The notes below the pieces were generated by a model. It searched no databases. It had not been told where the DNA came from and saw only the letters and a list, made by a program, of their open reading frames with translations. A DNA stretch of 64,000 bases from Pseudomonadota bacterium (GTDB lineage Bacteria; Pseudomonadota; Gammaproteobacteria; Pseudomonadales; Ketobacteraceae). Below, in pieces: positions 21,099-57,303 of the stretch. The number at the start of each line of letters is the position of its first letter. Position 1 is the stretch's first letter. Position numbers and translations under genes: made by a program. Location of the stretch: the NCBI GenBank assembly GCA_036337295.1, contig JAYZEN010000013.1, positions 187,862 to 251,861 of the forward strand. The letters are read 5' to 3'.

Positions 21099-21102
21099 GC
21101 AC

Positions 21103-23445: not shown

Positions 23446-23466
23446 CTGTTACCTGGAGTAAACACA

Positions 23467-24501
23467 ATGACCATGACACGATTCGAAAGTATAGGGGTGT
23501 ATCTTCCGGAACAGGAAGTCACCACCCGTGAACTGATTGACAGCATGGACACCGAACCCATGTTCGATCTGGAAAAGCTCACCGGCGTGAAAAGCCGTCG
23601 CTGGCGGGCACCCCATGAAGACTGTCACAGCCTGGCGCTGGAAGCCATCGAACGCTGCCTGGTGAACTCCCGCTATGAAGCCGACGAAATCGACGTGATC
23701 ATCTGCACCTCAATCACCCGTTTTAAAGACGGGCTCAAGTTTGTGTTGGAACCCTGCCTGAGCAGTTACCTGAAAAAACGCCTGGGCATGAGGGAAGATG
23801 CCTTGAATTTTGACATCACCAACGCCTGTGCCGGCATGTTCACCGGCGTACACGTGCTGGACCAGATGATCAAAAGCGGCGTGGTGCGCAACGGCCTCAT
23901 TGTCAGTGGTGAGTGCATTACCCCCATTTCCGAAACCGCATTGAAAGAAATCAACAACCCGGTGGATGAACAGTTCGCCTCCCTCACCGTGGGGGATTCC
24001 GGGGCCGCTGTATTGATGGATCAGTCCCCCAGCGACGACGAAGGGGTGGAGTTTCTGGAGTTGCTGACCTTGTCGCAGTTCTCGGACTTTTGTTACGGCA
24101 TGCCCAGCGATAAAAACCCCGGCGTGGCCATGTACACCAAGGCCATGGAAATTCACGCCACGGTGATTCAACGCCTGCCGCAAACACTGGGCCATTTTGC
24201 CGAGAAATACCAGGTCAGCGGCGCGGACTTTGCGCACGTGATTCCACATCAGACTTCCGAGCGCGCCATCCGCTCCGCCCTGGCCCTGTGCAGCGAATCC
24301 CTGGGCGACATTCCCAACATTTGCGTGTCGCTGGACCGCTACGGCAACACCTCTTCCACCTCGCACTTTGTGGTGCTCAACGACCACATCCAACAGGGCC
24401 ACATCCAGCCCGGGCAACGCATCCTGATGCTGGTGCTGGCCTCGGGTATTGTGTTGGGCGTGGCCTCCGTTCGCATCGGCAACCTGACAGGAGCACACTG
24501 A
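23467..24501 (+). CDS. FabH/OleA-like beta-ketoacyl synthase III (thiolase-fold condensing enzyme)
   Basis: Catalytic Cys in DITNACAGMF, His in VIPHQTSERA, Asn in DRYGNTSSTS: a complete Cys-His-Asn triad. 344 aa. Confidence 0.8.
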   Translation: MTMTRFESIGVYLPEQEVTTRELIDSMDTEPMFDLEKLTGVKSRRWRAPHEDCHSLALEAIERCLVNSRYEADEIDVIICTSITRFKDGLKFVLEPCLSSYLKKRLGMREDALNFDITNACAGMFTGVHVLDQMIKSGVVRNGLIVSGECITPISETALKEINNPVDEQFASLTVGDSGAAVLMDQSPSDDEGVEFLELLTLSQFSDFCYGMPSDKNPGVAMYTKAMEIHATVIQRLPQTLGHFAEKYQVSGADFAHVIPHQTSERAIRSALALCSESLGDIPNICVSLDRYGNTSSTSHFVVLNDHIQQGHIQPGQRILMLVLASGIVLGVASVRIGNLTGAH

Positions 24502-38566: not shown

Positions 38567-39477
38567 CAGAGATTCGCTGCGCCCTGCAGGGAACAACTGG
38601 TGATGGCCTGCACCAGGGCTTCGATGGCCTTGGGTCGGGAGAAGCGTTTGCGCGACACCAGGGACACCCGGCGATAGGGCGTCTTGCCGGCAAACGGGCG
38701 CTCCACAATGGTGTCACTGTCGTAGATGTGTTTGTCGGAGGAGGAGCTGGGCAGAATGGTGATACCGAGACCGGATGCCACCATGTGTCTCAGGGTTTCC
38801 AAAGAGGTGCCCTGGGGCAGGCTGGTTTCGTCACTGTGTTTGAGAATGCCGGGGCAGGCGTTCAGTACCTGATCGCGAAAGCAATGGCCTTCCCCCAGCA
38901 TGAGGATGTTTTCTTTTTCCAGCTGCTTGCGGGTGACCTTTTCCTGCTTGGCCAGGGGGTGCCCCGCCGGAATCAGCACTTCGAACGGCTCGTCGTAAAG
39001 ATCCTGGATTTCCACATCCGGTTCTTCAAACGGCAGCGAGATGATGATGGCGTCCAGCTCTCCGTTACGCAGTTTCTGGCGCAGCACCGCAGTGTAGTTT
39101 TCTTCCAGAATCAGCGGCATTTCCGGCGCAATGGGTTTGATGTTGCGAATCAGGTGGGGGAACAGATACGGGCCCACAGTGAAGATCGCCCCGATGCGCA
39201 GGGGCAGGTTGATCTGGCCTTTGCCTTCCTGGGCGATCTGCTTGACCAGCTCGGCCTCTTCCAGCACTTTGCGGGCCTGGGCCACGATGCGCTCGCCGGC
39301 CATGGTCACCCGCACGTCGGAACGATTGCGTTCGAAGATGGTCACATCCAGTTCATCTTCGAGCTTTTTAATGGCCACACTCAAGGTGGGCTGGCTGACA
39401 AAACACCGTTCAGCGGCGCGGCGGAAATGGCGTTCCTGGGCCAGGGTCACGATGTATCTCAATTCGGTCAGTGTCAT
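38566..39477 (-). CDS. oxyR: LysR-family hydrogen-peroxide sensor OxyR
   Basis: N-terminal HTH (MTLTELRYIVTLAQERHFRRAAERCFVSQPTLS) and the redox Cys region (GHCFRDQVLNACP), collinear with E. coli OxyR. Confidence 0.85.
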   Translation of the reverse strand: MTLTELRYIVTLAQERHFRRAAERCFVSQPTLSVAIKKLEDELDVTIFERNRSDVRVTMAGERIVAQARKVLEEAELVKQIAQEGKGQINLPLRIGAIFTVGPYLFPHLIRNIKPIAPEMPLILEENYTAVLRQKLRNGELDAIIISLPFEEPDVEIQDLYDEPFEVLIPAGHPLAKQEKVTRKQLEKENILMLGEGHCFRDQVLNACPGILKHSDETSLPQGTSLETLRHMVASGLGITILPSSSSDKHIYDSDTIVERPFAGKTPYRRVSLVSRKRFSRPKAIEALVQAITSCSLQGAANL

Positions 39478-39597
39478 GGAATATCCGTTCGATTGGGTAA
39501 TGATATGGCTGGTCACGATGAGTTTTACACGATAGCATATGGCGATTGCAACCATAAGAATTGAATAAATTTAACTATCAGGGGAAGACACCGGCAC

Positions 39598-40452
39598 ATG
39601 GCGCGAATATTGTTGGCGGGATGCGGCTCAATCGGCACCCAACTGGGACTGCAATTGCAGAACGCCGGGCATCAGGTGTGGGGGCTGAAACGCTCCCCGG
39701 ACACCCTGCCGTTCCCGGGCTTGCAGGGGGATCTGGGTCAACCTTTGGCCAGTACGCTGCTGCCGCCCGCACTGGACTACGTGATTCACACCGGCACCCC
39801 CGCCGAGCGCAGCGACGCAGGTTATCGCGCCGGCTACCCCCTGGCAGTGCAGCACCTGCTGGATGCCCTGGGGGAGCAGCGCTTGCAGCGGTTCATTTTT
39901 GTCTCCAGCACCGCGGTGTATGCCCAGGATGACGGCAGCTGGGTGGATGAGACCAGCGCCACCGAACCCCAGGCTTATAATGGCCGACGGGTGCTGGAAG
40001 CCGAACGGCTGGTGCAGGCTTCGGCGCAAACGGCCACCTGTGTGCGCTTTGGCGGCATTTATGGCCCCGGGCGCAACTGGCTGCTGCGTCGGGTCCAGGG
40101 GGGCGCCGACGTTCAGGTGGAGCCACCCAAATACACCAACCGCATCCATCAGGATGACTGTGTCGGCGTGCTTGCTCATCTTTTGCAATTGGCAGAACAG
40201 CGCGCGACACTGGCCGAGTGCTATTTGGCGGTAGACGACGATCCGGCCGATGAAGCCAGTGTCTGCAGCTGGTTGGCGCAACAATTGAAAGCACCGCAGC
40301 CCACCCCCAATAACCCGACAGACACACCGCCGGCGCAGAACAAACGCTGCCGCAATCAGCGCCTGCGCAACAGCGGCTATGCATTTCAGTATCCTTCCTT
40401 TCGGGAAGGCTACCAGGATGTTCTGCGCGGCCAAGCTGAATCTACGCACTGA
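39598..40452 (+). CDS. NAD(P)-binding SDR/epimerase-family protein
   Basis: N-terminal Rossmann motif ILLAGCGSIG. 284 aa. Confidence 0.55.
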   Translation: MARILLAGCGSIGTQLGLQLQNAGHQVWGLKRSPDTLPFPGLQGDLGQPLASTLLPPALDYVIHTGTPAERSDAGYRAGYPLAVQHLLDALGEQRLQRFIFVSSTAVYAQDDGSWVDETSATEPQAYNGRRVLEAERLVQASAQTATCVRFGGIYGPGRNWLLRRVQGGADVQVEPPKYTNRIHQDDCVGVLAHLLQLAEQRATLAECYLAVDDDPADEASVCSWLAQQLKAPQPTPNNPTDTPPAQNKRCRNQRLRNSGYAFQYPSFREGYQDVLRGQAESTH

Positions 40453-40478
40453 ATAAATTGAATAAAAGGAAACCATCC

Positions 40479-41084
40479 ATGTACCACACACTGTTTCGAC
40501 GATTTGCCCTGATCAGCGTGTTGCTGGGCAGCCTGTTGACCCTCAGCGGCTGCGGCATCAACAACATCCCCACGCTGGACGAACAGGTGAAGGCCGATTG
40601 GGCCCAGGTGCAGAACCAGTATCAACGGCGCGCCGACCTGATCCCCAACCTGGTGTCCACCGTCAAAGGCTATGCCGCCCACGAGCAGGAAACCCTGCAG
40701 GCGGTGGTGGAAGCCCGTGCCAAGGTAGGCTCCATGCAGGTGGACAGCAGCATTCTCAACAACCCGGAACAGCTGCAGCAGTTTGAAGCGGCGCAAGGTC
40801 AGCTCAGCAGCGCCTTAAGCCGCCTGATGGTGGTGGTGGAACGCTACCCCGACCTGAAAGCCAACCAGAACTTTCTGGCCCTGCAATCCCAACTGGAAGG
40901 CACCGAAAACCGCATCTCGGTGGCACGCCGTGATTTCATCCAGTCGGTGAGCGCGTATAACACTGAGATCCGCACCTTCCCCGGTCGCATCTGGCACAGT
41001 CTGCTGTACAGCGACATGCCCCTGCGCGAAACCTATGAAGCCACCACCAGCGGTGCCGAAGAAGCGCCCAAGGTGGAGTTCTGA
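40479..41084 (+). CDS. LemA family protein
   Basis: N-terminal TM/lipobox-like segment (LLTLSGC) and a LemA core (W.QVQNQYQRRADLIPNLV...). RBS AAAGGAAA. Confidence 0.8.
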   Translation: MYHTLFRRFALISVLLGSLLTLSGCGINNIPTLDEQVKADWAQVQNQYQRRADLIPNLVSTVKGYAAHEQETLQAVVEARAKVGSMQVDSSILNNPEQLQQFEAAQGQLSSALSRLMVVVERYPDLKANQNFLALQSQLEGTENRISVARRDFIQSVSAYNTEIRTFPGRIWHSLLYSDMPLRETYEATTSGAEEAPKVEF

Positions 41085-41785
41085 TGCTGCGCGCAACGCT
41101 GTTGCCACTGCTGCTGTGCCTGAGCACGCTTGGCAGTGTGAGCGCAGCCCCCAGTTTTCCGGCCCTCAGCGGGCGTGTGGTGGACCAGGCCAATATGCTG
41201 GCAAGCAGCACCGAACGCCGCCTCAGCCAGCAACTGCAAGCCCACGAAAACGCCACCGGCAATCAACTGGTGGTGGTCACTCTGCCCAACCTTCAAGGTT
41301 ACGACATTGAGACCTTCGGCTATCAGCTGGGGCGCCACTGGGGCATCGGCCAGAAAGGCAAGAACAACGGTGTGCTGTTCATCGTGGCGGAAAAGGAGCG
41401 ACGCATACGCATCGAAGGGGGCTATGGCCTGGAAGGCACCCTCACCGATGCCATCAGCGCCAACATCATTCAGACCATCGTGCAACCGGCCTTTAAACGA
41501 GGCCAATTTGAACAGGGCATCGAAGGCGGCACCAGCGCCATCATCCAGGCCTTGGGTGGCCAGTACCAAATGCGCAAAACCCAATCCAAAAGCAAGCTCA
41601 GTAACTGGATCATCATCCCCATCATTCTGTTCCTCATCTTGCGTGGCTTTGGCGGCCGCGGCGGCTTCGGCGGCAGACGGGGTGGGATCTACTATGGTGG
41701 TGGCGGCTTTGGCGGAGGTTCCGGTGGCGGCTTTTCCGGCGGCGGTGGCAGTTTTGGAGGCGGCGGCGCCTCGGGGGGATGGTAA
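41084..41785 (+). CDS. TPM-domain (YgcG-like) protein with Gly-rich C-terminal tail
   Basis: Signal peptide, TPM/TLP18.3 core (VVDQANML...QLVVVTLPNLQGYDIE...), TM, and a (GGGF/GGGS)n tail. Start overlaps the lemA stop. Confidence 0.75.
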   Translation: MLRATLLPLLLCLSTLGSVSAAPSFPALSGRVVDQANMLASSTERRLSQQLQAHENATGNQLVVVTLPNLQGYDIETFGYQLGRHWGIGQKGKNNGVLFIVAEKERRIRIEGGYGLEGTLTDAISANIIQTIVQPAFKRGQFEQGIEGGTSAIIQALGGQYQMRKTQSKSKLSNWIIIPIILFLILRGFGGRGGFGGRRGGIYYGGGGFGGGSGGGFSGGGGSFGGGGASGGW

Positions 41786-42402
41786 TGGCTTTATTCACGG
41801 AATCCGAACTGAAACAGGTGGCGGATGCCATCAACAACGTAGAGCAGCATACGGATGCAGAGTTGGTGGCGGTGCTGGCCCGCCAGTCCGACGATTACGT
41901 TTACATCCCCACACTGTGGGCAGCCATCATCGCCTTGCTGCTGCCCCTGCTGCTGAAATTCACCCCCTTCTGGCTCAATGGCGAAGAGCTGCTGATGCTG
42001 CAGTGGTTTAACTTTATTGCCCTGGCGCTGCTGTTCCGCGTGCCCCCGATCATGATGAGCCTGGTGCCCAAATCCGTAAAACGCTGGCGCGCCGCCAACC
42101 TGGCCCGACGCCAGTTTTTGGACAACAACCTGCACCACACCAAAGGCGAAACCGGGGTGCTGATATTCATCGCAGAAGCTGAGCATTACGTTGAAATCAT
42201 CGCCGACCGCGGCATCAGTCAGCATGTAGCCAATGACCAGTGGCAGGGCATCGTGGATGATCTGGTGGCCAGCATCAAACGCAAAGACACCCTGACGGGG
42301 ATGCTGAAATGCATCGAGGCCTGCGGTGAAAAATTAAAACAACACGCCCCGGCTACGGAAAGCAAGAATGAGTTGCCGAATCACTTGGTGGTGCTGGGGT
42401 AA
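41779..42402 (+). CDS. TPM-domain membrane protein
   Basis: LTESELKQVADAINNVEQHTDAELVAV is a TPM N-terminal motif, followed by TM segments. Forms an operon with lemA. Confidence 0.7.
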   Translation: MVMALFTESELKQVADAINNVEQHTDAELVAVLARQSDDYVYIPTLWAAIIALLLPLLLKFTPFWLNGEELLMLQWFNFIALALLFRVPPIMMSLVPKSVKRWRAANLARRQFLDNNLHHTKGETGVLIFIAEAEHYVEIIADRGISQHVANDQWQGIVDDLVASIKRKDTLTGMLKCIEACGEKLKQHAPATESKNELPNHLVVLG

Positions 42403-42521: not shown

Positions 42522-43061
42522 GTGACCAATAGACTTTCAGGAATACTCATTCTTATCACGTTCCTTGCAACTGCGTTTTCTGCACAGGCAGATACGTTTC
42601 GTTCCCGCGTAGTCACTGAAATCGACATCGATAAACCCATCGCCGACGTATTTGACTATGCCACCACCGCAGGCAACTGGAAGCACTGGCACCCCAACAC
42701 CTTCAACGCCAGAGGTGCCACTGACCACTCAGCCACTGAAAATGAAGAAATCATTGAAATATTGAAGCTGGGCTTCGTGGTGGGCCCACGCTTGTATTGG
42801 ACCGTCGCCGAACACACCGTGCCGAACAAGTGGCGACTGCTTGGGAAAGATCGAGCCGGGTTAATCAACGTGGAACTCACCTATACCTTTAGTATGAATG
42901 AAGACGGCTCCACCCGTTTTCGTCGAAAAATGATCTTGGATATACCCAAAGACCTGCTTCGCAACCCGATTAACGCGCTTGTGTTTATCGCTTATAACAG
43001 AAGAACATCCGCCAAAGCGCTGCGCCAGCTTAAGTCTGTGATCGAAGCTGATCCGATGTAG
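42522..43061 (+). CDS. SRPBCC (polyketide-cyclase/START-like) family protein
   Basis: Signal peptide and ~150-aa SRPBCC-like core (PIADVFDYATTAGNWKHWHP). Confidence 0.5.
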   Translation: MTNRLSGILILITFLATAFSAQADTFRSRVVTEIDIDKPIADVFDYATTAGNWKHWHPNTFNARGATDHSATENEEIIEILKLGFVVGPRLYWTVAEHTVPNKWRLLGKDRAGLINVELTYTFSMNEDGSTRFRRKMILDIPKDLLRNPINALVFIAYNRRTSAKALRQLKSVIEADPM

Positions 43062-43068
43062 TACCCGA

Positions 43069-43977
43069 TTATTCACCCAGGTCGATTTTCCTGAGCAGCG
43101 TTTCCAATTGCTGCTCAAAATCCTGGGGTTTGGAATCGACTCGAAAATAGAAAGGGGGGCGCCCCTGCCAATCCTCCGACCAGACGGCATCGCGCCCCTG
43201 TTCCATGAACTTCACTATGGCAATCAGCACATTGTCCTGCAGGATTCGGGCGTTCATCAGCGGGTTGCCGGAGGGTTGCAGTGGGTAGTACACCAGCCAG
43301 GGGCGTGCGTTTTCGTCCTTGGGGTCCAAGCGCCTTAGGTACAGATAAAGCGACTGAAAATTGCTGAAGTAGGAAAATTTCTCATAGCGCTGCGCCCATA
43401 CCTCACCGGAACGCCACGTATAGACAATGCGGCGCTCACGGTCGAAAAACAGCGGTGCATGGCGCCGCATGGACACTGACCAGGCACCCAGGAAGAGAAG
43501 GATGGTAATGGGTATGGACGTCATCAGAATGTCGGTTTGGCGGGTTCGGTCCGGATAGGCGTAGAAATTATGACTGTAACGCATCTGAGTCATGTACGTC
43601 ATGAAGGGAAGGGTTCGACCCTCAAAGACGGCGACAAACTTCTGTAGAGATTTACTATCTGACGCCGTTAGATAGTCCTCTCCATGCTTTTCTATTTCCA
43701 GGTCTATCCGCCACAACCCCCTTTGCTCCGCGCCTTTCCAGGAACGATAGACATCCTCCCCCTGCAGACACAGCACCGCCACCATGCCCAGCATCCAGGG
43801 AATAAAGAACATATTACGCACGGCGACATAATTGTCTTTAAACGCCAGAGTAAGTTGATCAATCCCCAGAATCGGAGGCGTCGGCTTTTTGAAACGCGGC
43901 AACTCGCGGCTCAGTAACTGTGCTGACTCATCAGCGAGCGGCTTGGCAGCTGGCAGGCTCTTTACAGTTCTCAACAT
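43069..43977 (-). CDS. membrane protein, putative T6SS immunity protein for the upstream effector
   Basis: 302 aa, two predicted TM helices (FFIPWMLGMVAVLCL; ILMTSIPITILLFLGAW). Last gene of the vgrG operon, 9 nt after the effector stop. Confidence 0.5.
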   Translation of the reverse strand: MLRTVKSLPAAKPLADESAQLLSRELPRFKKPTPPILGIDQLTLAFKDNYVAVRNMFFIPWMLGMVAVLCLQGEDVYRSWKGAEQRGLWRIDLEIEKHGEDYLTASDSKSLQKFVAVFEGRTLPFMTYMTQMRYSHNFYAYPDRTRQTDILMTSIPITILLFLGAWSVSMRRHAPLFFDRERRIVYTWRSGEVWAQRYEKFSYFSNFQSLYLYLRRLDPKDENARPWLVYYPLQPSGNPLMNARILQDNVLIAIVKFMEQGRDAVWSEDWQGRPPFYFRVDSKPQDFEQQLETLLRKIDLGE

Positions 43978-43986
43978 TCAGACCTT

Positions 43987-46900
43987 TCAGGCAACTTCAT
44001 CATTGATCATACCGACCACAGGACTCTCAATCAGACCGTCGTCCGTCAGATAGCGCATCGGTACGACTGTGTTGGGGGTGGGTTTATAGGCCCAAAACAA
44101 TTCAATATCCTCCTGGGCGTCGAACTCCACCAATACATTCGTAAAACCATCCCGCTCTTCAAACCTGGCGGCTTCTATAGCTTCGCCTAACTTGGCCGTC
44201 AACGCCTTATTCTCCCGCCACACACCGGCACTGAAAACATTAAAATCAATATGACGAGTACGTACCTCATACATAATATCGGACACACCGATCTGAAATC
44301 TGGGCAACGAGAACTTTAATGAGAACGTTCTAGTATCACCGGAGGTATCAAACCAACCCTCTGTATCCGAAAGTTCCAGCGTTGGCATGTTCAGGTAGTT
44401 CATAAACTCCTGTAATTCAACTTTGTACGCAGACAGCACCATCGGATTACTCGCCATCTCTTTGGCATCTTCAATACGGTCTGCAACGTCAGGCCGGTCG
44501 TCCTCGAATTCCCAAAACCCATATTTACTGCTCACACCCCAGAAGCAATTTTCCAACAACCGCTGGAAATCCGACTTCCCATATATCCACAGCAGTGCCG
44601 CACCTGTCCCCATACACAATAACCCGACCACTATTACAACCAGGCCGGGGGGAGCCCCGACCCCAGTCGCAGTGGCACCGCCACCGGCAGCCGCTGCGGC
44701 CGCGCCTACACCTTGGAGAGTGGCCAGTATAATGGCAATAGAACCCACTGCCAGCACAAAGTGCCCAGCCGCTTCACCTCGATTGTCGCCCTGCCAGGAG
44801 TTGATGCCGTTCCAGACCGAAGCAGTAGCCGAGGCAAAATTTGCTACCACGATGACACGGGAAAACAGCTGTGACTTCAACAAGGTGCCCAGCACCGAGG
44901 CTCGATCACTCAGTTTCGGTGCCAGGGAGGCGATTACCTGATTGGATGCCTGCGCTGAAGCACTTGCCGAGACGCCCACCGCAGCTCGGCTGATGGTCAA
45001 CACATCCACCGTCAACGACGTCACGGCGGAGGCGAATTGAATCAGGCCATGCACAGTATGCCCCCGCTGCAAAGGGTCATTATCGTAATAGTCCGCCTGC
45101 AAATACAAGTCATAGATCACGCGGCAGTTGGCGTAAGCGGATAAACCCGCAAAGCCGGACTCTGCCGCCACCCCAATACCCTCACCCACACTTTTCGGCA
45201 CCACAAAAGAGAATCGCTTTCCAGGCAGGCGGGTAATCTCGATTTCTGACAGTTCCACATAACGGGGTATGGTGGTCTTTTTGGTTTTTTGTCCCCAATC
45301 AAACATCTTCTGGGCACGGGACAGTGCCTTTTCTGCCGCCTTTAATACATCATCCCCTGCTGTCCCCGGGTAAGACCGGGCGGACGCTTCAATCTGCTCC
45401 GCCAGAATCTGCCCCAACTTCTCCGGCGTATACCGTACTCGATTGGCATTATCCACCGTTATGCCCATAGCCTTGTGCACATAGGGAATGACCTGATTGA
45501 CGGTGTACTTGTAAACATTGGCCAGAAAGCGATTCTTGGCCCGCACCGACACCTGTGCCTCATAAATGGAGAACACTGCAATTTTGGCCCACAGCGGGCC
45601 CAGTTGCTGCAGCAGTTTATCCATTGGGACGCCCACCTTGGCCGCCCAATCTACGGTGTCCTGCGGTGCAGTCACTATGCCTTTGAACACACCAAAAAAC
45701 GCCACATAGGCATTCTTGTCGTTGTTGAAGTCTTCAAGTATTTTTTCTATAACGGAATTGCCCCGGTCAGAGGACAGTATTCCATTGAAAATACCCGCAC
45801 CAATCTCACACAGTTTGGCCAACTCCGCGGTTGCTTCATCCCCTTTCGCGGTATCCTGACAAAAGAATTTCTGGAAATAGTTGTCCAGAGAACCGACCTT
45901 ACCGGTCACCCCCGCGCCGTGCATGAACGCACGATAGAGTTCCACAAACTGTTCCTGTCGGGCCGCAAAGTCCTTGAACTCCTGATCAATTCCAGCCCAG
46001 TATTGATCGTAATCCCCCCAATTTATCGATTCCTTCAGTACATCCTGCAGCGCTTCATCGTTGGATTGTTTCAGCTGCCCCACTAGCTGCCCAATGGTAA
46101 ATGGATAAAGATTCTGCGATGCATAGGCCTTCTCCCACAGCGCCAACTTGGCGTGCACCTCGGCAATGTCTCTTTGTCTGCCGACCGGATCATGCAATGC
46201 CACCACGCGGGCGGTTTCACCCGGTTTGGTTTTGCGTCTCAGCGCCAGTGCAATCTGGTCCGCATCCATGTCGTAGCTGGACTGAGTCGTCAGCACGTCG
46301 AGCGCCAGGTCTTTCACACTGGGATCTGTACTGCTGTTTTTTATCCGTAACAGGCGCGCCTTCTGTTCCCGATAATCCTCAACCAGGCGCGCCAGATTCT
46401 CCGCAGTGGCCGGCACCGCCGCCGGATCGTCGCTCTTAAGCTTGATCCTTTGCATGGACGCAGCCCGCTCACCCGCATCTCCGTTCATTTTATCGATGAT
46501 ATCGGGATGCCACTCGTGCTCACTATACGCAATACTGATTTCAGTGACCTCCTTGCGCACAAAAACGAAGGGATAGCCTCCTTTGACGCCCCCCGATGTA
46601 TCCTCTTTAAGACCACCCTGGGCATTCACTCCATTAGCGAACTGGTATTTTGGAAAACGCTCTTCCAGCTGCCCGTTATTCTCCACCGGTGCATATTTAA
46701 AGATCTGGAAGTGGCCGCCGTTCGGGCCATCTTCTTCCCGTATATAAATCCAACCAGGTCGCAACAATCTTGGCACATAGCCGTTGGTACTGTTCAGGTC
46801 TGCCGCATCCAGCATGGCCGAGAGTGGAGGTGGTTCCGTTGGCGCGAGCAACGACTCCTCAAAGAAGTTTGCATAGGCGTAGCGCACCGGATAGATCGGG

Positions 46901-46995
46901 GTAACGATCGTACCCACAACCAGGGTATTGACTTCGTTCAATGCTACGGGCCTGGGCTCAACACCAGCAGCGGGCGGGGTTTGATTGGTGGTCAT
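43987..46995 (-). CDS. large T6SS cargo effector candidate with C-terminal transmembrane hairpins (VasX-like membrane-disrupting toxin)
   Basis: 1002 aa. No enzymatic motif is recognisable. C-terminal third has two strongly hydrophobic Gly/Ala-rich helices (HFVLAVGSIAIILATLQGVGAAAAAAGGGATATGVGAPPGLVVIVVGLLCMGTGAALLWIY). Sits downstream of vgrG in the same operon. Confidence 0.55.
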   Translation of the reverse strand: MTTNQTPPAAGVEPRPVALNEVNTLVVGTIVTPIYPVRYAYANFFEESLLAPTEPPPLSAMLDAADLNSTNGYVPRLLRPGWIYIREEDGPNGGHFQIFKYAPVENNGQLEERFPKYQFANGVNAQGGLKEDTSGGVKGGYPFVFVRKEVTEISIAYSEHEWHPDIIDKMNGDAGERAASMQRIKLKSDDPAAVPATAENLARLVEDYREQKARLLRIKNSSTDPSVKDLALDVLTTQSSYDMDADQIALALRRKTKPGETARVVALHDPVGRQRDIAEVHAKLALWEKAYASQNLYPFTIGQLVGQLKQSNDEALQDVLKESINWGDYDQYWAGIDQEFKDFAARQEQFVELYRAFMHGAGVTGKVGSLDNYFQKFFCQDTAKGDEATAELAKLCEIGAGIFNGILSSDRGNSVIEKILEDFNNDKNAYVAFFGVFKGIVTAPQDTVDWAAKVGVPMDKLLQQLGPLWAKIAVFSIYEAQVSVRAKNRFLANVYKYTVNQVIPYVHKAMGITVDNANRVRYTPEKLGQILAEQIEASARSYPGTAGDDVLKAAEKALSRAQKMFDWGQKTKKTTIPRYVELSEIEITRLPGKRFSFVVPKSVGEGIGVAAESGFAGLSAYANCRVIYDLYLQADYYDNDPLQRGHTVHGLIQFASAVTSLTVDVLTISRAAVGVSASASAQASNQVIASLAPKLSDRASVLGTLLKSQLFSRVIVVANFASATASVWNGINSWQGDNRGEAAGHFVLAVGSIAIILATLQGVGAAAAAAGGGATATGVGAPPGLVVIVVGLLCMGTGAALLWIYGKSDFQRLLENCFWGVSSKYGFWEFEDDRPDVADRIEDAKEMASNPMVLSAYKVELQEFMNYLNMPTLELSDTEGWFDTSGDTRTFSLKFSLPRFQIGVSDIMYEVRTRHIDFNVFSAGVWRENKALTAKLGEAIEAARFEERDGFTNVLVEFDAQEDIELFWAYKPTPNTVVPMRYLTDDGLIESPVVGMINDEVA

Positions 46996-47025
46996 GTTGG
47001 GTTCCAGTGCGGATGATGCGTTTAA

Positions 47026-47682
47026 TCAACACCCAAAATCTTTTTGGGCAGCATGATAGATGTCGGGTGATGGTTGTCCATCTACGGTCATATTGCAGGC
47101 GGCCTGATACGACATTATTCCTTCTTTGGTACGCCTGCCATAAATGCCATCGACTACACCACAATCGTGCCCAAGGCTGTTGAGCCTGGCTTGCAAACCG
47201 GCGAGCGTATCGGCAGGATCAAGGTGCGCCAATTGCAGTTCGAATCGATGGCTGGGCTCTGCCATGTCTGGATCATCAAACACGTCCAGGTGCATGACTT
47301 TGACATTGGGATCATCCACTTCGAGTTTGAGCGTGCCGTCTGTACCGCTGACCACCGGCTTCTTGTTTCCATTGATGGAAAGCTCAGCAGGGACTTTGCT
47401 TTTGGGTCGTCCACTTTCATCCAGCAGGCGTAGCGTGAGCTTCTGCGTTTCCCGATCCACATAAAAAACATGATGAGCACCGGTTCGAACCGTGACACTT
47501 TTGCTTTCAGTTTGCGGGATCTGGATTTCATCACCGGCACAAATGATATTGGGGTTGGGTCGCTTTTTTCGAAACGCGGCATTGGCGTCATGAAAGTAAA
47601 TATCCCGCCAATTTGCGATCTTATGCTGGCGGGCGATGGTGAAGAGGTTTTCGCCTTGCTGAACGATATGAGTGGTTGGCAT
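47026..47682 (-). CDS. LysM plus peptidoglycan-binding (PG_binding_1-like) domain protein
   Basis: N-terminal LysM (HIVQQGENLFTIARQH...ICAGDEIQIP). C-terminal LQARLNSLGHDCGVVDGIYGRRTKEGIMSYQAACNMTVDGQPS is a PG-binding repeat. Confidence 0.7.
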   Translation of the reverse strand: MPTTHIVQQGENLFTIARQHKIANWRDIYFHDANAAFRKKRPNPNIICAGDEIQIPQTESKSVTVRTGAHHVFYVDRETQKLTLRLLDESGRPKSKVPAELSINGNKKPVVSGTDGTLKLEVDDPNVKVMHLDVFDDPDMAEPSHRFELQLAHLDPADTLAGLQARLNSLGHDCGVVDGIYGRRTKEGIMSYQAACNMTVDGQPSPDIYHAAQKDFGC

Positions 47683-47704
47683 GGTTTCAGGTCTTCAAAT
47701 GAAT

Positions 47705-49996
47705 TTATTTCCAGGGCTCGCTGTCCGGAAAGCTGACTTTGCAATCCCCCTTGGGTAGCCCCTGAATACGGGCCACACCGTTTGCGTCGGTGACACCCGT
47801 GTATTGCTTGCCGTTTTTGTCCGTCACCACATACTGGGTGTTGGCAATGGGGTTGCCCTGGGTATCGCACATCTCCAGGCTTACGTTATCCGGAAGCGCT
47901 TCAATCTGTTCGCGGGTGATGCTGGTATCTCGACTCGCCACTGCCACCCTCGTCACCGCCTCATCCGGATTCGCCTGCCCACCGGTGACCGACTGGGTGC
48001 TGACCACCTTGCTGGCCACCGGGGCGGTGTTGGGCATGGCGGGTGCGCTGGCGCTGCCAGGTTTGTCGCCCTGATCGGCGGGTTTGGGTTCACGGGGGGG
48101 CGTGATTACTGCGGGTCGGCCCGGGGTGGCCGCGCCGCCGGTGTTGATGCGGACCATGGGGCCTTTGATGGTGACGCCGCTGGGGTCCAGTTTCACCAGT
48201 CCGCCACCGGCCTTCAGGGTCAGCTCCACTCCGGCCTGGATCACCAGCGACATGCCGGCTTTCAACACAATGTCCTGACCGGCCTGCTCCACATAAGAGC
48301 CGGAGATTTTGATCTGCGCCGCCTGCCCGATGTTCTGTGACAGGTTCTGGCCGATCTTCTGATGATGGTTTTGCTTAATGGTGGTGTGCTGGTCGGCACC
48401 CACGGCCTGATTCATGTGATTGCCCACGGTGGTGTGCTGTTCGTTGCCCACCCACTCCTTCCAATCGTTTTGGGTGTACAGATCCAGATCCTTTTCGCTG
48501 TGCAGGTAGATCTGCTCCTGGCCTTTTTTGTCTTCGATGCGCAGTTCGTTGAAACCGCCTCCGCCGGGGCTGCTGATGCTCTTGAACGCGGTGCGGGTTT
48601 TGTGGGTGGGCAAGGGATAGGGCAAGGCGTTGGTGCCGTTGTAGAGGGTGCCCGTGACCAGGGGACGGTCCGGATTGCCCTCCAGGAACGAGACGATGAC
48701 CTCCTGGCCGATGCGGGGGATCACCATGGCGCCCCATTGGTTGCCCGCCAAGCCCTGGCTGACCCGCAGCCAGCAACTACTGGCCTCATCATACTGGCCT
48801 TCCCGGTCCCAGTGGAACTGGACCTTCACCCGCCCAAACTGGTCGGTGTAGATCTCCTCCCCCGCCGGGCCGGTGACGAAGGCCGTTTGGGTACCTTCCA
48901 CCCGGGGCGGCGGCGTGATGGCGGGGGCACGAAACGGCAGGGACGCGGGCATGGCGCCAAATTCACAGCTGAAGCGGCTGCCCTCACTGCTGGCACCTTC
49001 CCCCAGGGATTGGGGCTGGCGCCCCTGCACCCGCACAGACAGCAGAATCGCCTCGGCATTCAGGTCCTGGCGCGGATGGTCCTTCACCGTGAAGCGGTAG
49101 CCCGGCCACAGCCGCGGGCAATCCGATTCGCCTTCAATGCTCTGGCGTTGGGCCTGGTGGGCTTCCAATTGCAGCCTGGCGTAGCGCTCACCCTGGGCGG
49201 GATCATTGAAATCCCCGCGATAGTGGTATTGTTCCAGACCCTGATAAGGGCCGGCCTGCGCGCTCTTGTCCAGCCGCAGCTGGCTCTTCTCAAAAAAGTA
49301 ATCCCGCAGGGTGACCTTGCCCGGCCGGATGGCAGCACGGGCATGCAACCGGTAGATGGATTCCTGGTCGGACACCATGCCCGTGCGTTCCTTGTAGCGC
49401 ACGGCACGGGCACCGGCAATAGGCTGGAAGCGCCCGTTGTGATCACAGATCACCAGGGTATGGCGATCCGCATGGTGTTCGAAAAAGTAGAAGAGCCCCT
49501 CTTCCTCCAGCAGCCGGCTGATGAAGTGAAAATCCGTTTCGCCATACTGGGTACAGTATTCCCGCAGTGGATACTGCCCCCTCAGATCCAGGCTCACATC
49601 CTGGCCCTGGATATTGGCTTCCTTCAACACCTGGCGGATGATCTCCGGTACGGTTTTTTGCTGGAAGATGCGCAGGTTGCTGCGGTAAAGCAGAAACGCC
49701 AGCTTCGGCACCAGAGTGACGGTATAGAGGGTGAACTGATGGCCGCTTTCCCCCTGCCGGATTTGCAGGATTTCACCATGGAAATAGTGCGGATGGCGCT
49801 CATCAAACAGGGTCAGGAGGCCATTTTTGCCAACCAGCTTTTCCAGCGCCAGGGCATTGTTTTCGCAGGCCAGCTCCACTTCACAGCGGAACAGGTCAGA
49901 AACCGCCGCCTTTATGTCGAATCCCACCACCCGCAGGGTGTCCGGCAGGCTGGGAATCTGGAATAAAAAGCGAGTCACATTGGCAGGTACGGTCAT
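47705..49996 (-). CDS. vgrG: type VI secretion system spike protein VgrG with C-terminal extension
   Basis: 763 aa. gp27-like N-terminus (FDERHPHYFHGEI...LYRSN...), gp5-like OB and beta-helix region (GSYVEQAGQDIVLKAGMSLVIQAGVELTLKAGGGLVKLD), and an extra ~120-aa C-terminal domain after a Pro-rich linker. Confidence 0.9.
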   Translation of the reverse strand: MTVPANVTRFLFQIPSLPDTLRVVGFDIKAAVSDLFRCEVELACENNALALEKLVGKNGLLTLFDERHPHYFHGEILQIRQGESGHQFTLYTVTLVPKLAFLLYRSNLRIFQQKTVPEIIRQVLKEANIQGQDVSLDLRGQYPLREYCTQYGETDFHFISRLLEEEGLFYFFEHHADRHTLVICDHNGRFQPIAGARAVRYKERTGMVSDQESIYRLHARAAIRPGKVTLRDYFFEKSQLRLDKSAQAGPYQGLEQYHYRGDFNDPAQGERYARLQLEAHQAQRQSIEGESDCPRLWPGYRFTVKDHPRQDLNAEAILLSVRVQGRQPQSLGEGASSEGSRFSCEFGAMPASLPFRAPAITPPPRVEGTQTAFVTGPAGEEIYTDQFGRVKVQFHWDREGQYDEASSCWLRVSQGLAGNQWGAMVIPRIGQEVIVSFLEGNPDRPLVTGTLYNGTNALPYPLPTHKTRTAFKSISSPGGGGFNELRIEDKKGQEQIYLHSEKDLDLYTQNDWKEWVGNEQHTTVGNHMNQAVGADQHTTIKQNHHQKIGQNLSQNIGQAAQIKISGSYVEQAGQDIVLKAGMSLVIQAGVELTLKAGGGLVKLDPSGVTIKGPMVRINTGGAATPGRPAVITPPREPKPADQGDKPGSASAPAMPNTAPVASKVVSTQSVTGGQANPDEAVTRVAVASRDTSITREQIEALPDNVSLEMCDTQGNPIANTQYVVTDKNGKQYTGVTDANGVARIQGLPKGDCKVSFPDSEPWK

Positions 49997-50087
49997 GGGG
50001 TCAGCACTTGGGTTTTGTTAGCCTAGCGTCATACGGAATATCCGCGCTCTGAATAAAGACAGCGCCCCAACAAAGATCGAGGCCCTA

Positions 50088-50828
50088 ATGACCGACTATC
50101 GTGACGAAGCCACCGCCCCCAAGACCAATATTGAGGAGTTCCGCAAGATCGTGGAAAGCCGACGCTCCGTGCGCCGCTTTACCGACGCTCCGGTGCCGGA
50201 TGAAGTGGTGGAGGACTGTCTGGATCTGGCCATGCTGGCCCCCAATTCCTCGAACCTGCAGCCCTGGGAGTTCTACGTGGTGCGGGACCCGGCCGTACGC
50301 GCCAAACTGGCGGAAGCCTGCCTGGGCCAGAACGCTGCCACCACTGCCCAGGTACTGATTCCCATCATTGCCCGCCCGGACACCTGGAAGCAGAACAGCC
50401 TGCGCAACCTGGAGTTCTGGCCGGAAGAGACCATGCCCAGGATCATCAAAAACTATTATTCCAAGCTGGCCCTGATTCATTACAACCCGGGCCCGCTGGG
50501 TTCCTTTGGCCTGGCCAAGAAAGCCATGGGTCTGGTGGCGGGCCTGAAACGGGCGGTGCCGCGGGGGCCCTACGGCATCAATGAGATGAAGACCTGGGCA
50601 GTGAAGTCGACCGCCCTGGCAGCGGAGAACATGATGCTGGCGTTCCGCGCCCATGGCTACGACACCTGCCCCATGGAGGGGTTTGACGAACACCGGGTGC
50701 GCAAGATTCTGGACCTGCCCTCAGACGCCATCGTCACCATGATATTGGGTGTGGGCAAACGGGCCGAAGACGGCATCTATCACCGCCGCTACCGTTTTCC
50801 GCGTGAAGAATTCATTCACCGCATCTGA
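50088..50828 (+). CDS. nitroreductase family protein
   Basis: RRSVRRF...V (FMN-binding N-terminal motif) and NSSNLQPWEF. 246 aa. Confidence 0.8.
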   Translation: MTDYRDEATAPKTNIEEFRKIVESRRSVRRFTDAPVPDEVVEDCLDLAMLAPNSSNLQPWEFYVVRDPAVRAKLAEACLGQNAATTAQVLIPIIARPDTWKQNSLRNLEFWPEETMPRIIKNYYSKLALIHYNPGPLGSFGLAKKAMGLVAGLKRAVPRGPYGINEMKTWAVKSTALAAENMMLAFRAHGYDTCPMEGFDEHRVRKILDLPSDAIVTMILGVGKRAEDGIYHRRYRFPREEFIHRI

Positions 50829-54926: not shown

Positions 54927-55155
54927 GGATTGCTCCCTTTGCTACCCCAATGAATAACCCAATAACTGCACGTTGAATTCTTATTAATGTGCTTAGGCAA
55001 ACCGAAGCATAAACGCTGGTGGCCGGTTTTCCAAGCTTTCGCGCCCGCGCCTGCCCGGGACCCGCTCGACCAACGTCTAATACCCATCCTACATGGGGTG
55101 GTTTAAAACGTTTGATGTACAACGACAATAAAACAAGCATTCGGAGGGTTCGTGT

Positions 55156-55422
55156 ATGGCGTTCAAGAGCAAGGAAGACGCGACCGCTTACTGGGCCGCC
55201 AACGTCAAGTTGATGCTGACGCTGTTGGTGGTGTGGTTCGTGGTGTCTTTTGGTTTCGGTGTGATTCTGGTGGATGTGTTGAATCAAATTCAGCTGGGTG
55301 GTTACAAGCTCGGCTTCTGGTTCGCGCAGCAAGGTTCCATCTACACCTTTGTGGTGTTGATTTTCGTCTATGCGAAAAAGATGGGGCAGTTGGACCGCAA
55401 GTACGGCGTGGACGAGAAGTGA
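55156..55422 (+). CDS. DUF4212-type small membrane protein (accessory subunit of sodium:solute symporter)
   Basis: 88 aa, two TM helices, characteristic ...WFAQQGSIYTFVVLIFVYAKKM... Confidence 0.7.
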   Translation: MAFKSKEDATAYWAANVKLMLTLLVVWFVVSFGFGVILVDVLNQIQLGGYKLGFWFAQQGSIYTFVVLIFVYAKKMGQLDRKYGVDEK

Positions 55423-55433
55423 GGTAAAACACC

Positions 55434-57164
55434 ATGGATCTGCAAACCTTAACCTATATCGTGGTGGGCTTTACCTTTGCCCTGTACATCGGCATCGCCA
55501 TCTGGGCCCGGGCCGGCTCCACCAAAGACTTTTACGTAGCCGGCGGCGGGGTTCACCCCATTTCCAACGGCATGGCCACGGCGGCAGACTGGATGTCGGC
55601 GGCGTCATTTATTTCCATGGCCGGCATGATTGCGTTCATGGGCTACGGTGGTTCGGTGTTCCTGATGGGCTGGACCGGTGGCTTTGTGCTGTTGGCCATG
55701 CTGCTGGCACCCTACCTGCGTAAATTCGGCAAGTTCACGGTGCCGGAATTCATCGGTGATCGTTACTACTCCAAAGCCGCCCGCATTGTGGCGGTGGTGT
55801 GTTTGATCATCGCCTCGGTGACCTATGTTATCGGCCAGATGAAAGGCATCGGGGTGGCGTTCTCCCGCTTCCTGCAGGTGGATTACGGCACCGGCTTGCT
55901 GGTGGGCATGGGCATCGTGTTCGTGTATGCGGTACTGGGTGGCATGAAAGGCATCACCTATACCCAGATCGCCCAGTACTGTGTGCTGATTTTTGCCTAC
56001 ACCATTCCGGCGATTTTTATCTCTCTCAACCTCACCGGTAACCCGATTCCGCAACTGGGCCTGGGCTCCACCATGGCGGGAACGGATACGTTTCTATTGG
56101 ACAGGCTGGACCAAGTGGTGACCGAGTTGGGGTTCCATGAGTACACGACGCAATCGAGGCTTAGTCAGCTCAATATGTTCGTGTACACCATGTCCCTGAT
56201 GATCGGAACAGCCGGTTTGCCCCACGTCATCATCCGTTTCTTCACCGTACCCAAGGTAGCCGACGCCCGCACTTCCGCCGGCTGGGCCCTGGTGTTCATT
56301 GCCATTCTGTACACCACTGCGCCTGCGGTTGCCGCCATGGCACGCATGAACTTCATGAACACCATTGAACCCACCAAGGGCAATTACATGACCTATGATG
56401 AACGCCCCAACTGGTTCAAGAACTGGGAAACCACCGGTTTGCTGGAGTTCAAGGACAAGAACGGTGACGGCAAGGTGCAGTACAGCGCCAACGCCGAGGT
56501 CAACGAAATGGTGACCGTGGACCGTGACATCATGGTACTGGCCAACCCGGAAATCGCCCGCCTGCCCAATTGGGTGATCGCGCTGGTGGCCGCCGGTGGC
56601 CTGGCCGCGGCTTTGTCTACCGCCGCCGGGTTGTTGCTGGCCATCTCGTCTGCCATCTCCCACGATTTGTTGAAAGGGGTGTTCATGCCGGACATCGACG
56701 AGAAGAACGAGTTGATGGCCAGTCGGGTCGCCATGGCCGGGGCCATCGCTGTGGCCGGCTACCTGGGCTTCAATCCGCCGGACTTTGCCGCCGGGACGGT
56801 GGCGCTGGCCTTTGGTTTGGCGGCGTCCTCGATCTTCCCGGCGCTGATGATGGGTATCTTCAACAAGCGCATCAACAAGGAAGGGGCCATTGCCGGTATG
56901 GTGGCGGGTATCACCGTGACCCTGCTGTATGTGTTCCAGCATCAGGGCATCATGTTCGTCGCCAGCACGGCCTTCCTGGGTGATCTCAAACCCAACTGGT
57001 TCTTCGGGATTGAGCCCAATGCCTTCGGTGCCATTGGTGCGGTGGTGAACTTTGCGGTGGCCTTCCTGGTCTCCCGGGTGACCCAGGAGCCGCCGGAACA
57101 CGTGCAGGACATGGTGGAAAGCATCCGTATGCCGGCCGGCGCCGGGGATGCCCAAGCCCACTGA
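55434..57164 (+). CDS. sodium:solute symporter family transporter (ActP/VC_2705-like cation/acetate symporter)
   Basis: 576 aa, ~13 TM. SSS signature region (GGMKGITYTQIAQ). Encoded directly after DUF4212, as in known pairs. Confidence 0.85.
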   Translation: MDLQTLTYIVVGFTFALYIGIAIWARAGSTKDFYVAGGGVHPISNGMATAADWMSAASFISMAGMIAFMGYGGSVFLMGWTGGFVLLAMLLAPYLRKFGKFTVPEFIGDRYYSKAARIVAVVCLIIASVTYVIGQMKGIGVAFSRFLQVDYGTGLLVGMGIVFVYAVLGGMKGITYTQIAQYCVLIFAYTIPAIFISLNLTGNPIPQLGLGSTMAGTDTFLLDRLDQVVTELGFHEYTTQSRLSQLNMFVYTMSLMIGTAGLPHVIIRFFTVPKVADARTSAGWALVFIAILYTTAPAVAAMARMNFMNTIEPTKGNYMTYDERPNWFKNWETTGLLEFKDKNGDGKVQYSANAEVNEMVTVDRDIMVLANPEIARLPNWVIALVAAGGLAAALSTAAGLLLAISSAISHDLLKGVFMPDIDEKNELMASRVAMAGAIAVAGYLGFNPPDFAAGTVALAFGLAASSIFPALMMGIFNKRINKEGAIAGMVAGITVTLLYVFQHQGIMFVASTAFLGDLKPNWFFGIEPNAFGAIGAVVNFAVAFLVSRVTQEPPEHVQDMVESIRMPAGAGDAQAH

Positions 57165-57177
57165 TCTGTAACCCACG

Positions 57178-57232
57178 GCCCGGACACAATCCGGGCCAGA
57201 CCCCAAGCCTCCATCACCACAAGTACTGGGGG
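57178..57232 (+). terminator. terminator region after symporter gene
   Basis: Perfect hairpin GGCCCGG-acacaat-CCGGGCC, then a second weak stem and a T9 tract. Confidence 0.5.
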
Positions 57233-57303
57233 CTTTTTTTTGGGTACTATACTGACGCTGACGCCAATACACTGACGCCAGCCAGCAACCATACGAGTCG
57301 CAC

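Follow-up and report, generated by a model that had tools for sequence, protein, structure and literature searches.

Organization of the locus

Within a 64,000-nucleotide stretch of contig JAYZEN010000013.1 (hereafter the window) from a member of the Ketobacteraceae, four open reading frames (ORFs) follow one another on the minus strand, each with an ATG start and separated, according to the ORF listing of the window, by gaps of 22, 30 and 9 nt. With a probability that we put at roughly 0.85, they represent an auxiliary ('orphan') type VI secretion system (T6SS) cargo module of a Ketobacter-like gammaproteobacterium, composed of a VgrG spike, a LysM loading factor, a pore-forming toxin and a membrane immunity protein. 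The genes, their relevant domains and the associated regions, one of which is defined by comparison with a Ketobacter sp. metagenome-assembled genome (MAG; locus L001), are as follows:

47705-49996, minus strand: vgrG (tssI), 763 aa, the cargo-carrying spike
47711-47893, minus strand: C-terminal transthyretin (TTR)/prealbumin-like beta-sandwich of VgrG, aa 702-762, with sub-threshold CarboxypepD_reg and SpaA matches at aa 705-756
47026-47682, minus strand: accessory gene, 218 aa, LysM, beta-sandwich and PG_binding_1 regions; predicted cytoplasmic non-enzymatic adaptor or co-delivered partner
43987-46995, minus strand: VasX/BTH_I2691-type T6SS toxin, 1002 aa, predicted to be pore-forming and membrane-depolarising
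46432-46902, minus strand: MIX-II/VasX_N delivery domain of the toxin, aa 32-188, a Pfam match that is beta-rich in the model
44548-45150, minus strand: toxin aa 616-816, a stretch of hydrophobic helices, predicted membrane-inserting domain
44014-44382, minus strand: C-terminal beta-rich domain of the toxin, aa 872-994, strands in the model with pLDDT of about 70-86
43069-43977, minus strand: immunity candidate, 302 aa, predicted inner-membrane protein with two transmembrane (TM) helices
43064-46063, minus strand: toxin-immunity cassette, either recombined or diverging fast (toxin from codon ~311 onward, with the immunity gene), 79-92% DNA identity to L001
49997-50087, no strand assigned: divergent intergenic region, 91 nt, presumed to be the promoter region of the module

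A preliminary description of this DNA had placed four minus-strand genes, 9-30 nt apart, with a convergent SRPBCC gene on one side and a divergent nitroreductase gene on the other, and the coordinates agree on both counts. The SRPBCC gene (Polyketide_cyc2; 42522-43061, plus strand) converges on the 302-aa gene, their stop codons being 7 nt apart, and the nitroreductase gene (50088-50828, plus strand), which is followed by a TetR gene, diverges from vgrG at 91 nt from its start. None of the three intergenic gaps contains an intrinsic-terminator-like site, and from the spacing of the genes we infer that the four form an operon. The four exact proteins are publicly available as MEE2733690-93, from a MAG labelled 'Pseudomonadota bacterium', where they are annotated as hypothetical protein, toxin VasX, peptidoglycan-binding protein and TssI/VgrG.

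The same description regarded the locus as an auxiliary vgrG module, with no other T6SS core genes in the window, and this view stands. No hcp, tssA-M or PAAR gene was found by Pfam scans among 53 of the 56 window ORFs of at least 90 aa, with most of 33365-42401 and 55062-59539 judged via the annotated homologous region of L001 rather than by direct scan, and with the ORFs at 34357-34671, 35969-36340 and 55152-55427 lying outside both the scans and this comparison. The surroundings are made up of housekeeping and metabolic genes. They include an MMPL/KAS III lipid cluster and genes for a methyl-accepting chemotaxis protein (MCP), SpoT, RidA, PolA, RecG, RtcR/RtcB, FadL, a GGDEF protein and a subtilase that bears an autotransporter domain.

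A toxin of the VasX family

The 1002-aa protein, which had been proposed to be a large membrane-active, VasX-like effector worth checking for MIX or other effector markers, matches the Pfam VasX_N family (PF20249; 89.8 bits, gathering score 27) in the segment of residues 32-188. An AlphaFold2 (AF2) model based on 47 homologues (pLDDT 65.5, pTM 0.62) presents a beta-rich region (31-195), a long helical region (198-573), a set of low-confidence hydrophobic helices (616-816) and a beta domain at the C-terminus (872-994). The Kyte-Doolittle hydropathy of the sequence peaks at 650-669, 740-773 and 772-807. A sequence search of the PDB with the toxin alone yielded nothing useful. The only significant Foldseek matches of the model in the PDB are Ptx2 (9qpv, E=3.5e-10) and Tke5-Tap3 (9r8g, E=6.8e-10), both over the full length and with a probability of 1.0, at 12-13% identity and with TM-scores of 0.35-0.40.

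For Tke5, published boundaries place the MIX domain at 17-238, the alpha-region, whose predicted TM helices span 622-803, at 239-863, and the Ig-like, beta-rich region at 864-996; the first constitutes the adaptor-binding interface in the Tke5-Tap3 structure and the last is a membrane/receptor-binding region (PMC12909789). The regions of the window protein fall into the same three parts, with nearly the same boundaries, which supports its assignment to the VasX/Tke5 type. Tke5, VasX and Ptx2 are pore-forming or membrane-depolarising toxins that are neutralised by membrane immunity proteins (PMC13133200), and the 1002-aa product is likewise predicted to be a VasX-family toxin with pore-forming or membrane-depolarising activity. 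The VasX_N match and the full-length resemblance of the model to Ptx2 and Tke5 thus speak in favor of the original proposal.

A total of 113 homologues of the toxin were collected from marine gamma- and alphaproteobacteria and from Hafnia, Photorhabdus and Xenorhabdus, the closest of which is publicly named 'toxin VasX'. The link of the large protein to T6SS, which had been put forward from the gene order, is upheld by the contexts of these homologues, which are not confined to settings outside T6SS, as would have refuted it, but lie in T6SS loci or are fused to PAAR-like or VgrG domains, as in a Vibrio protein of ~1450 aa bearing a PAAR-like DUF4150 and in fusions to VgrG/DUF2345. The same four genes are found in L001 and in an independent assembly (L002). 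Accessory homologues lie directly upstream of toxin homologues in these two loci and in L004, L005 and L006, and local BLAST shows that accessory, toxin and immunity homologues co-occur. Beyond the four-gene arrangement, L004 comprises the accessory, the toxin and two immunity homologues, with no vgrG within 8 kb, and L005 presents tssB, a 522-aa PG_binding_1/LysM protein, the toxin and an immunity array. A core cluster of Moritella (L006) runs from tssC to tssG, followed by the accessory and the toxin, behind which lie two immunity homologues and another protein of comparable size. In Gynuella (L003), a VgrG fragment region and a PG_binding_1 protein located three genes upstream of the toxin are followed by three immunity homologues, and in Hafnia (L007) the order is VgrG, PAAR, DUF4123, toxin and three immunity homologues. 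A single toxin subfamily therefore appears with three loading solutions, namely a LysM-type accessory, a DUF4123 adaptor with PAAR, and direct fusion to PAAR or VgrG, which makes it a good subject for asking how MIX domains are recognised.

Two of these loci present further peculiarities. In Moritella sp. 36 (L006:14009-18275), two VasX_N toxins share one core T6SS cluster. The first belongs to the subfamily of the window toxin and has a stand-alone accessory, and the second is of the canonical type, with 1180 aa and a downstream TsiV2 gene. A LysM stretch (42% identity over 78 aa; LysM match) is fused to the N-terminus of this canonical protein, with which the window toxin shares 22.5% identity over 182 aa, restricted to the N-terminal domain. 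In L005, two ORFs of ~181 aa (L005:11932-12477 and L005:13472-14020) are intercalated between tandem immunity homologues and match the final 100 residues of the window toxin at 41-45% identity. They look like cassettes of an orphan C-terminal fragment plus immunity gene, as in Rhs/CDI arrays, and these orphan copies hint that the C-terminal beta domain helps to set specificity.

The immunity candidate

The small membrane protein downstream of the toxin had been suggested as an immunity candidate, and what is known of its family favors this suggestion. The 302-aa protein has predicted TM helices at ~50-74 and ~147-170 and no signal peptide, and finds no match in Pfam (in a copy lacking PF27447), NCBIfam or the PDB. 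An exhaustive HMMER search of a library clustered at 50% identity returned 90 representatives of the family, mostly of 290-330 aa, and each toxin homologue examined is directly followed by one to three tandem homologues of this protein, with 27-41% identity. Its place behind the toxin, its predicted membrane topology, its occurrence in tandem and a divergence that parallels that of the toxin make it a credible cognate immunity protein, and the family it belongs to (~300 aa, two TM helices) is as yet unnamed, matching no model in the libraries searched. Membership in the TsiV2 family was considered and rejected by profile comparison, since a 38-sequence immunity profile aligned to the PF27447-annotated protein of Moritella with an hhalign probability of 0.2%; blastp gave no match.

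The VgrG spike and its T6SS background

Judged by its profile matches, the first gene is unambiguously a bona fide vgrG/tssI, with gp27-like hub, gp5 OB-fold and beta-helix above curated thresholds (TIGR03361, 631 bits, cutoff 186; TIGR01646, 426 bits, cutoff 122; Pfam Phage_GPD, 307 bits; Gp5_trimer_C, 110.6; Phage_base_V, 57). Its 761-aa counterpart in K. alkanivorans (AUM12815.1) is 74% identical over the full length, and a scan of a genome collection with the window protein returned Pseudomonas and other VgrGs at 44% identity or less, with no Ketobacter among the matches listed. Beyond the gp5 beta-helix, the gene encodes a Pro/Ala/Ser-rich linker and then the TTR/prealbumin-like domain. 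In ~21 metagenome loci a tblastn match covering the TTR-like region immediately precedes the accessory gene, about half of these falling within a longer VgrG match, and the domain is a probable docking site for the accessory or the cargo. The TTR-like domain is also 42% identical to the N-terminal domain of the PG_binding_1 accessory of Gynuella (L003:7422-8141) and resembles a domain of the 522-aa accessory of L005 (L005:6414-7982), a likeness that points to the shuffling of domains among spikes and accessories.

The closest plain VgrG paralogues reside within complete T6SS clusters. P0170 (57% identity) lies beside hcp, tssA, tssB, tssC, tssE, tssF, tssG and a sigma-54 activator, and P0166 (60% identity) beside tssM, pppA, ppkA, hcp, tssA, tssB, tssC and tssE. 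In addition, an Hcp protein from a MAG labelled 'Pseudomonadota bacterium' (MEE2730529.1) is at least 90% identical to an Hcp encoded beside a full T6SS cluster, and its accession belongs to the same series as MEE2733690-93, at a distance of ~3,160 accessions.

The LysM-type accessory protein

The accessory had been called a LysM/PG-binding protein, and the two halves of that name fare differently. Its PG_binding_1 match, at 38.9 bits, is above the cutoff of 23, and the corresponding motif has the canonical form and shows strong conservation among family members, while the LysM match is just below threshold and the LysM fold is seen in the model. The AF2 model (pLDDT 82) places the LysM region at residues 1-56 and the beta-sandwich at 80-150, separated by a flexible linker, and shows PG_binding_1 as a bundle of three helices at 160-216. 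Within residues 1-56, three helices (13-40) lie between strands at 3-6 and 52-55, which agrees with the LysM fold, and members of the accessory family carry PF01476 (LysM). No enzyme fold was seen in the accessory, its matches in the PDB being limited to the level of domains in structural searches and to the PG_binding_1 domain in sequence searches, and no signal peptide, hydrophobic N-terminus or TM segment is predicted. Neither Pfam nor NCBIfam detects DUF4123 (PF13503) in it, so that it is not a VasW/Tap-like homologue.

A screen of 130,825 vgrG loci has placed LysM and PG_binding_1 among six domain families that occur either in separate genes or as fusions with VgrG or with a toxin (Wang et al. 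2023, PMC10673891), and the 218-aa protein, a stand-alone LysM protein between vgrG and toxin, belongs to this LysM-type T6SS accessory class. The best-characterized case is the GI5 locus of K. alkanivorans, which consists of a VgrG (Kalk_10465), a LysM protein (Kalk_10460), a toxin (Kalk_10455) and Kalk_10450 (PMC10673891). There, Kalk_10455 is toxic in E. coli and its toxicity is relieved by Kalk_10450, the LysM protein itself is non-toxic in E. coli, and co-immunoprecipitation detects binding of Kalk_10455 to VgrG only when the LysM protein is present (PMC10673891). The window locus shares with GI5 the genus-level lineage, the order of VgrG, stand-alone LysM protein, toxin and immunity gene, and, in K. 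alkanivorans, the 74%-identical VgrG described above, but no K. alkanivorans protein is found among the 113 toxin homologues. It is probably a cargo-swapped relative of the GI5 locus and not its ortholog.

The accessory family is, in itself, much broader than that of VasX-like toxins. A metagenome scan recovered at least 514 relatives, and the downstream cargo was read in the best 80 loci, only one of which (L112) has a VasX-like gene downstream of the accessory homologue; a specific association of the accessory with VasX-like toxins is thereby ruled out. Elsewhere the cargo consists of Amidase_2 proteins of ~1000 aa (L098, L116, L137 and L143), an OmpA-domain protein of 1091 aa with an FGE-sulfatase protein encoded behind it (L093), a 1089-aa ORF of unscanned domain content in the equivalent position (L094), a LysM-fused 613-aa protein (L097) and, at some other loci, proteins without a recognisable domain. 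This variety of cargo suggests that the accessory is a general, swappable loading module. In a related core T6SS cluster (L173: tssM, pppA, ppkA, hcp, vgrG ... tssA, tssB, tssC, tssE), a small LysM protein is encoded two genes after vgrG (L173:12834-13367), so that LysM accessories also occur inside core clusters of this lineage.

Comparison with known systems

The parallel initially drawn with vgrG2-vasW-vasX-tsiV2 of V. cholerae is valid in part. The order of spike, accessory, ~1000-aa toxin and membrane immunity gene is the same, as are the VasX_N/MIX-II toxin with predicted TM helices and the location away from the core cluster. In contrast, the window accessory lacks the DUF4123 domain present in its Hafnia equivalent, and no relation exists between its immunity protein and TsiV2. 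What the module has in the places of VasW and TsiV2 are thus analogues, not homologues. The Tke5-Tap3-Tki5 system of Pseudomonas putida and the Ptx2-Tap6-Pti2 system of P. aeruginosa resemble the module in the full-length fold of the toxin and in the membrane immunity protein encoded downstream, but they differ from it in the low identity of the toxins (12-13%), in an adaptor that is a DUF4123 Tap and not of the LysM type, and in the family of the immunity protein.

A different precedent is provided by VP1388-VP1389-VP1390 of Vibrio parahaemolyticus, in which a MIX protein is a non-toxic co-effector, an OmpA_C-like protein is the toxin and immunity is periplasmic (PMC8728615). There, as presumably here, a MIX protein is paired both genetically and physically with a peptidoglycan-binding-domain protein, and the two partners are loaded on the spike. 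Unlike in the Vibrio system, the MIX protein of the window has the full architecture of a pore-forming toxin, its peptidoglycan-binding protein has no candidate toxic domain or OmpA domain, and its immunity candidate, predicted to cross the membrane twice, lacks a signal peptide. As a family model for the accessory, this binary module was discarded because VP1390 is an OmpA_C-like toxin.

Proposed mechanism and alternative explanations

On these grounds, it seems reasonable to postulate that VgrG would form the spike and present its C-terminal TTR-like domain, and that the 218-aa protein would bridge the VgrG C-terminus and the MIX/VasX_N domain of the toxin, as the co-immunoprecipitation in the congener, the conserved gene linkage and the MIX interface of Tke5-Tap3 suggest. 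Upon firing, the toxin would reach the periplasm of a neighbouring bacterium, where its helices at ~aa 616-816 may insert into the inner membrane of the prey and dissipate the membrane potential in the manner of VasX, Tke5 and Ptx2, to judge by its fold and family. In the producer, the 302-aa protein would sit in the inner membrane and neutralise the toxin in sister cells, a role consistent with its location, its predicted TM helices, its tandem copies in relatives and its divergence alongside the toxin. Toxins of this class, LysM accessories and auxiliary modules of this layout have all been published before, and NCBI already names the toxin, so that current understanding is left unchanged.

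Several observations weigh against this interpretation. For this locus itself, the evidence consists of sequence comparison, gene linkage and predicted structures. The toxin misses the cutoff of NCBIfam NF041559 (BTH_I2691; 108.8 vs 150 bits), aligning over residues 33-310 only, and by this model is a distant subfamily and not a member; its sequence similarity to Tke5 is marginal (E=1.3e-4) and confined to the N-terminus, and the confidence of its structural model is moderate (pLDDT 65.5) and lowest in the putative TM region. The LysM match of the accessory is below threshold (16.9 vs 20.9 bits). The loci recovered that most resemble GI5 (L093 and L094, with the VgrG closest to that of K. alkanivorans and an accessory 50% identical) have other cargo, an OmpA-domain protein in L093. 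No promoter was found in the 91-nt region upstream of vgrG, which contains neither a sigma-70-like nor a sigma-54-like match, the latter kind being rarer than expected by chance. Finally, the connection to a core T6SS is indirect, accession proximity alone suggesting that the same MAG encodes Hcp MEE2730529.1.

Among the alternatives, the one that best survives, although we hold it to be tentative, is that the 218-aa protein is a secreted co-effector that is fired together with the toxin and whose peptidoglycan-binding modules act in the periplasm of the prey, for instance by tethering the toxin at the cell wall close to the inner membrane, with a logic analogous to that of the VP1388/VP1390 binary module. 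The canonical and conserved PG_binding_1 motif would fit such a role, and a protein without a signal peptide cannot reach the peptidoglycan of its producer. Several of the partner effectors lack a recognisable domain, and all the recognisable ones (VasX-like, Amidase_2 and OmpA-domain proteins) are envelope-directed. Co-secreted partners of MIX proteins do exist (PMC8728615), and Wang et al. leave the secretion and multifunctionality of the LysM protein undecided (PMC10673891). However, the role demonstrated for the non-toxic K. alkanivorans LysM protein is the bridging of VgrG and toxin, and LysM domains also serve as structural baseplate modules that do not bind peptidoglycan (PMC10673891, discussion). 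The co-effector proposal draws on sequence features, and it is compatible with a loading function of the accessory, which it extends rather than replaces. A wider version, slightly more doubtful, would see in the accessory an interchangeable adaptor family that docks on the VgrG TTR-like domain, is fired with envelope-targeting cargo and anchors that cargo at the prey wall; the BTH_I2691-type subfamily would then have swapped its DUF4123 chaperone for a secreted, peptidoglycan-anchoring partner.

Protist grazing is a pressure to which marine bacteria are subject, and the toxin could in principle be directed primarily at grazers and amoebae instead of serving as an interbacterial weapon. VasX, as cited in PMC13133200, was indeed discovered as a factor for killing Dictyostelium. 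Nonetheless, the tightly linked, co-diverging membrane immunity gene and the tandem immunity arrays of related loci imply a risk of self- or kin-intoxication, and with it antibacterial activity, which makes a primarily anti-eukaryotic toxin improbable, even if the two activities are not mutually exclusive. Least probable of all, if by a small margin, is that the module is a stranded, non-functional remnant kept by drift or immunity-gene addiction in a genome without a working T6SS, since the lack of T6SS core genes in the 64 kb of the window and of a recognisable promoter upstream of vgrG has to be set against four intact ORFs, whose order and length recur unchanged in another Ketobacter MAG and in assemblies made independently, against the Hcp in the accession series of the four proteins and against the complete T6SS clusters that house the nearest plain VgrG paralogues.

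Apparent acquisition and divergence of the cargo

Base composition separates the spike from its cargo. The G+C content at third codon positions (GC3) of vgrG is 0.76, within the range of host genes (0.71-0.81), while that of the accessory is 0.52, that of the toxin 0.59, that of the immunity gene 0.64 and that of the SRPBCC gene 0.57. By this measure vgrG looks native and the accessory-toxin-immunity cargo looks horizontally acquired, which makes the locus a clean natural case of modular T6SS weaponry, with foreign-looking cargo behind a native-looking vgrG. The initial designation of the locus as an island is supported to this extent, and by the presence or absence of the SRPBCC gene in the comparison with L001; it finds no support in the borders of the module, where flanking direct or inverted repeats do not exceed chance and no tRNA is found, nor in any nearby integrase or transposase.

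The module occupies the same chromosomal position in L001, with a flank that is 97% identical at the DNA level. From 46064 to 50826 (toxin residues 1-310, accessory, vgrG and nitroreductase gene) identity to L001 is 94-99%, and it drops at ~46060, which corresponds to toxin codon ~311. The encoded proteins follow the same pattern, with 97.9% identity for VgrG, 99.1% for the accessory, 91.1% for the toxin and 89.4% for the immunity protein, and the first ~310 aa of the toxin are 99% conserved, like VgrG and the accessory. This looks like a conserved delivery part set against a diverging toxin-immunity part, as would be expected for polymorphic effector-immunity pairs or for an exchangeable cassette. 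Between two close relatives, then, the loading part is near-identical and the killing part, together with its immunity gene, is more diverged, a clean example of T6SS modularity.

Both sides of the module differ from L001 in gene content. The SRPBCC gene, within the segment 42402-43063, is missing from the otherwise 97%-identical L001 and may have arrived with the cargo or separately. On the other side, the segment 50827-55061, which encodes TetR, an NAD-dependent epimerase, an autotransporter beta-domain protein and a subtilase, is replaced in L001 by a single MCP gene and is a second variable spot adjoining the module.

Other features of the window

Two further loci lie at some distance from the module. 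The segment 29986-34413 is an RNA-repair locus, unrelated to the module, that comprises an HNH endonuclease, the RtcR sigma-54 activator, the RtcB RNA ligase and the only tRNA of the window (tRNA-Met). The cluster at 19719-24501 encodes a condensation/WS-DGAT-like acyltransferase, an MMPL transporter and a KAS III-like enzyme, a combination that suggests that a lipid such as a wax ester is made and exported, and that would fit the alkane-degrading Ketobacter lineage.

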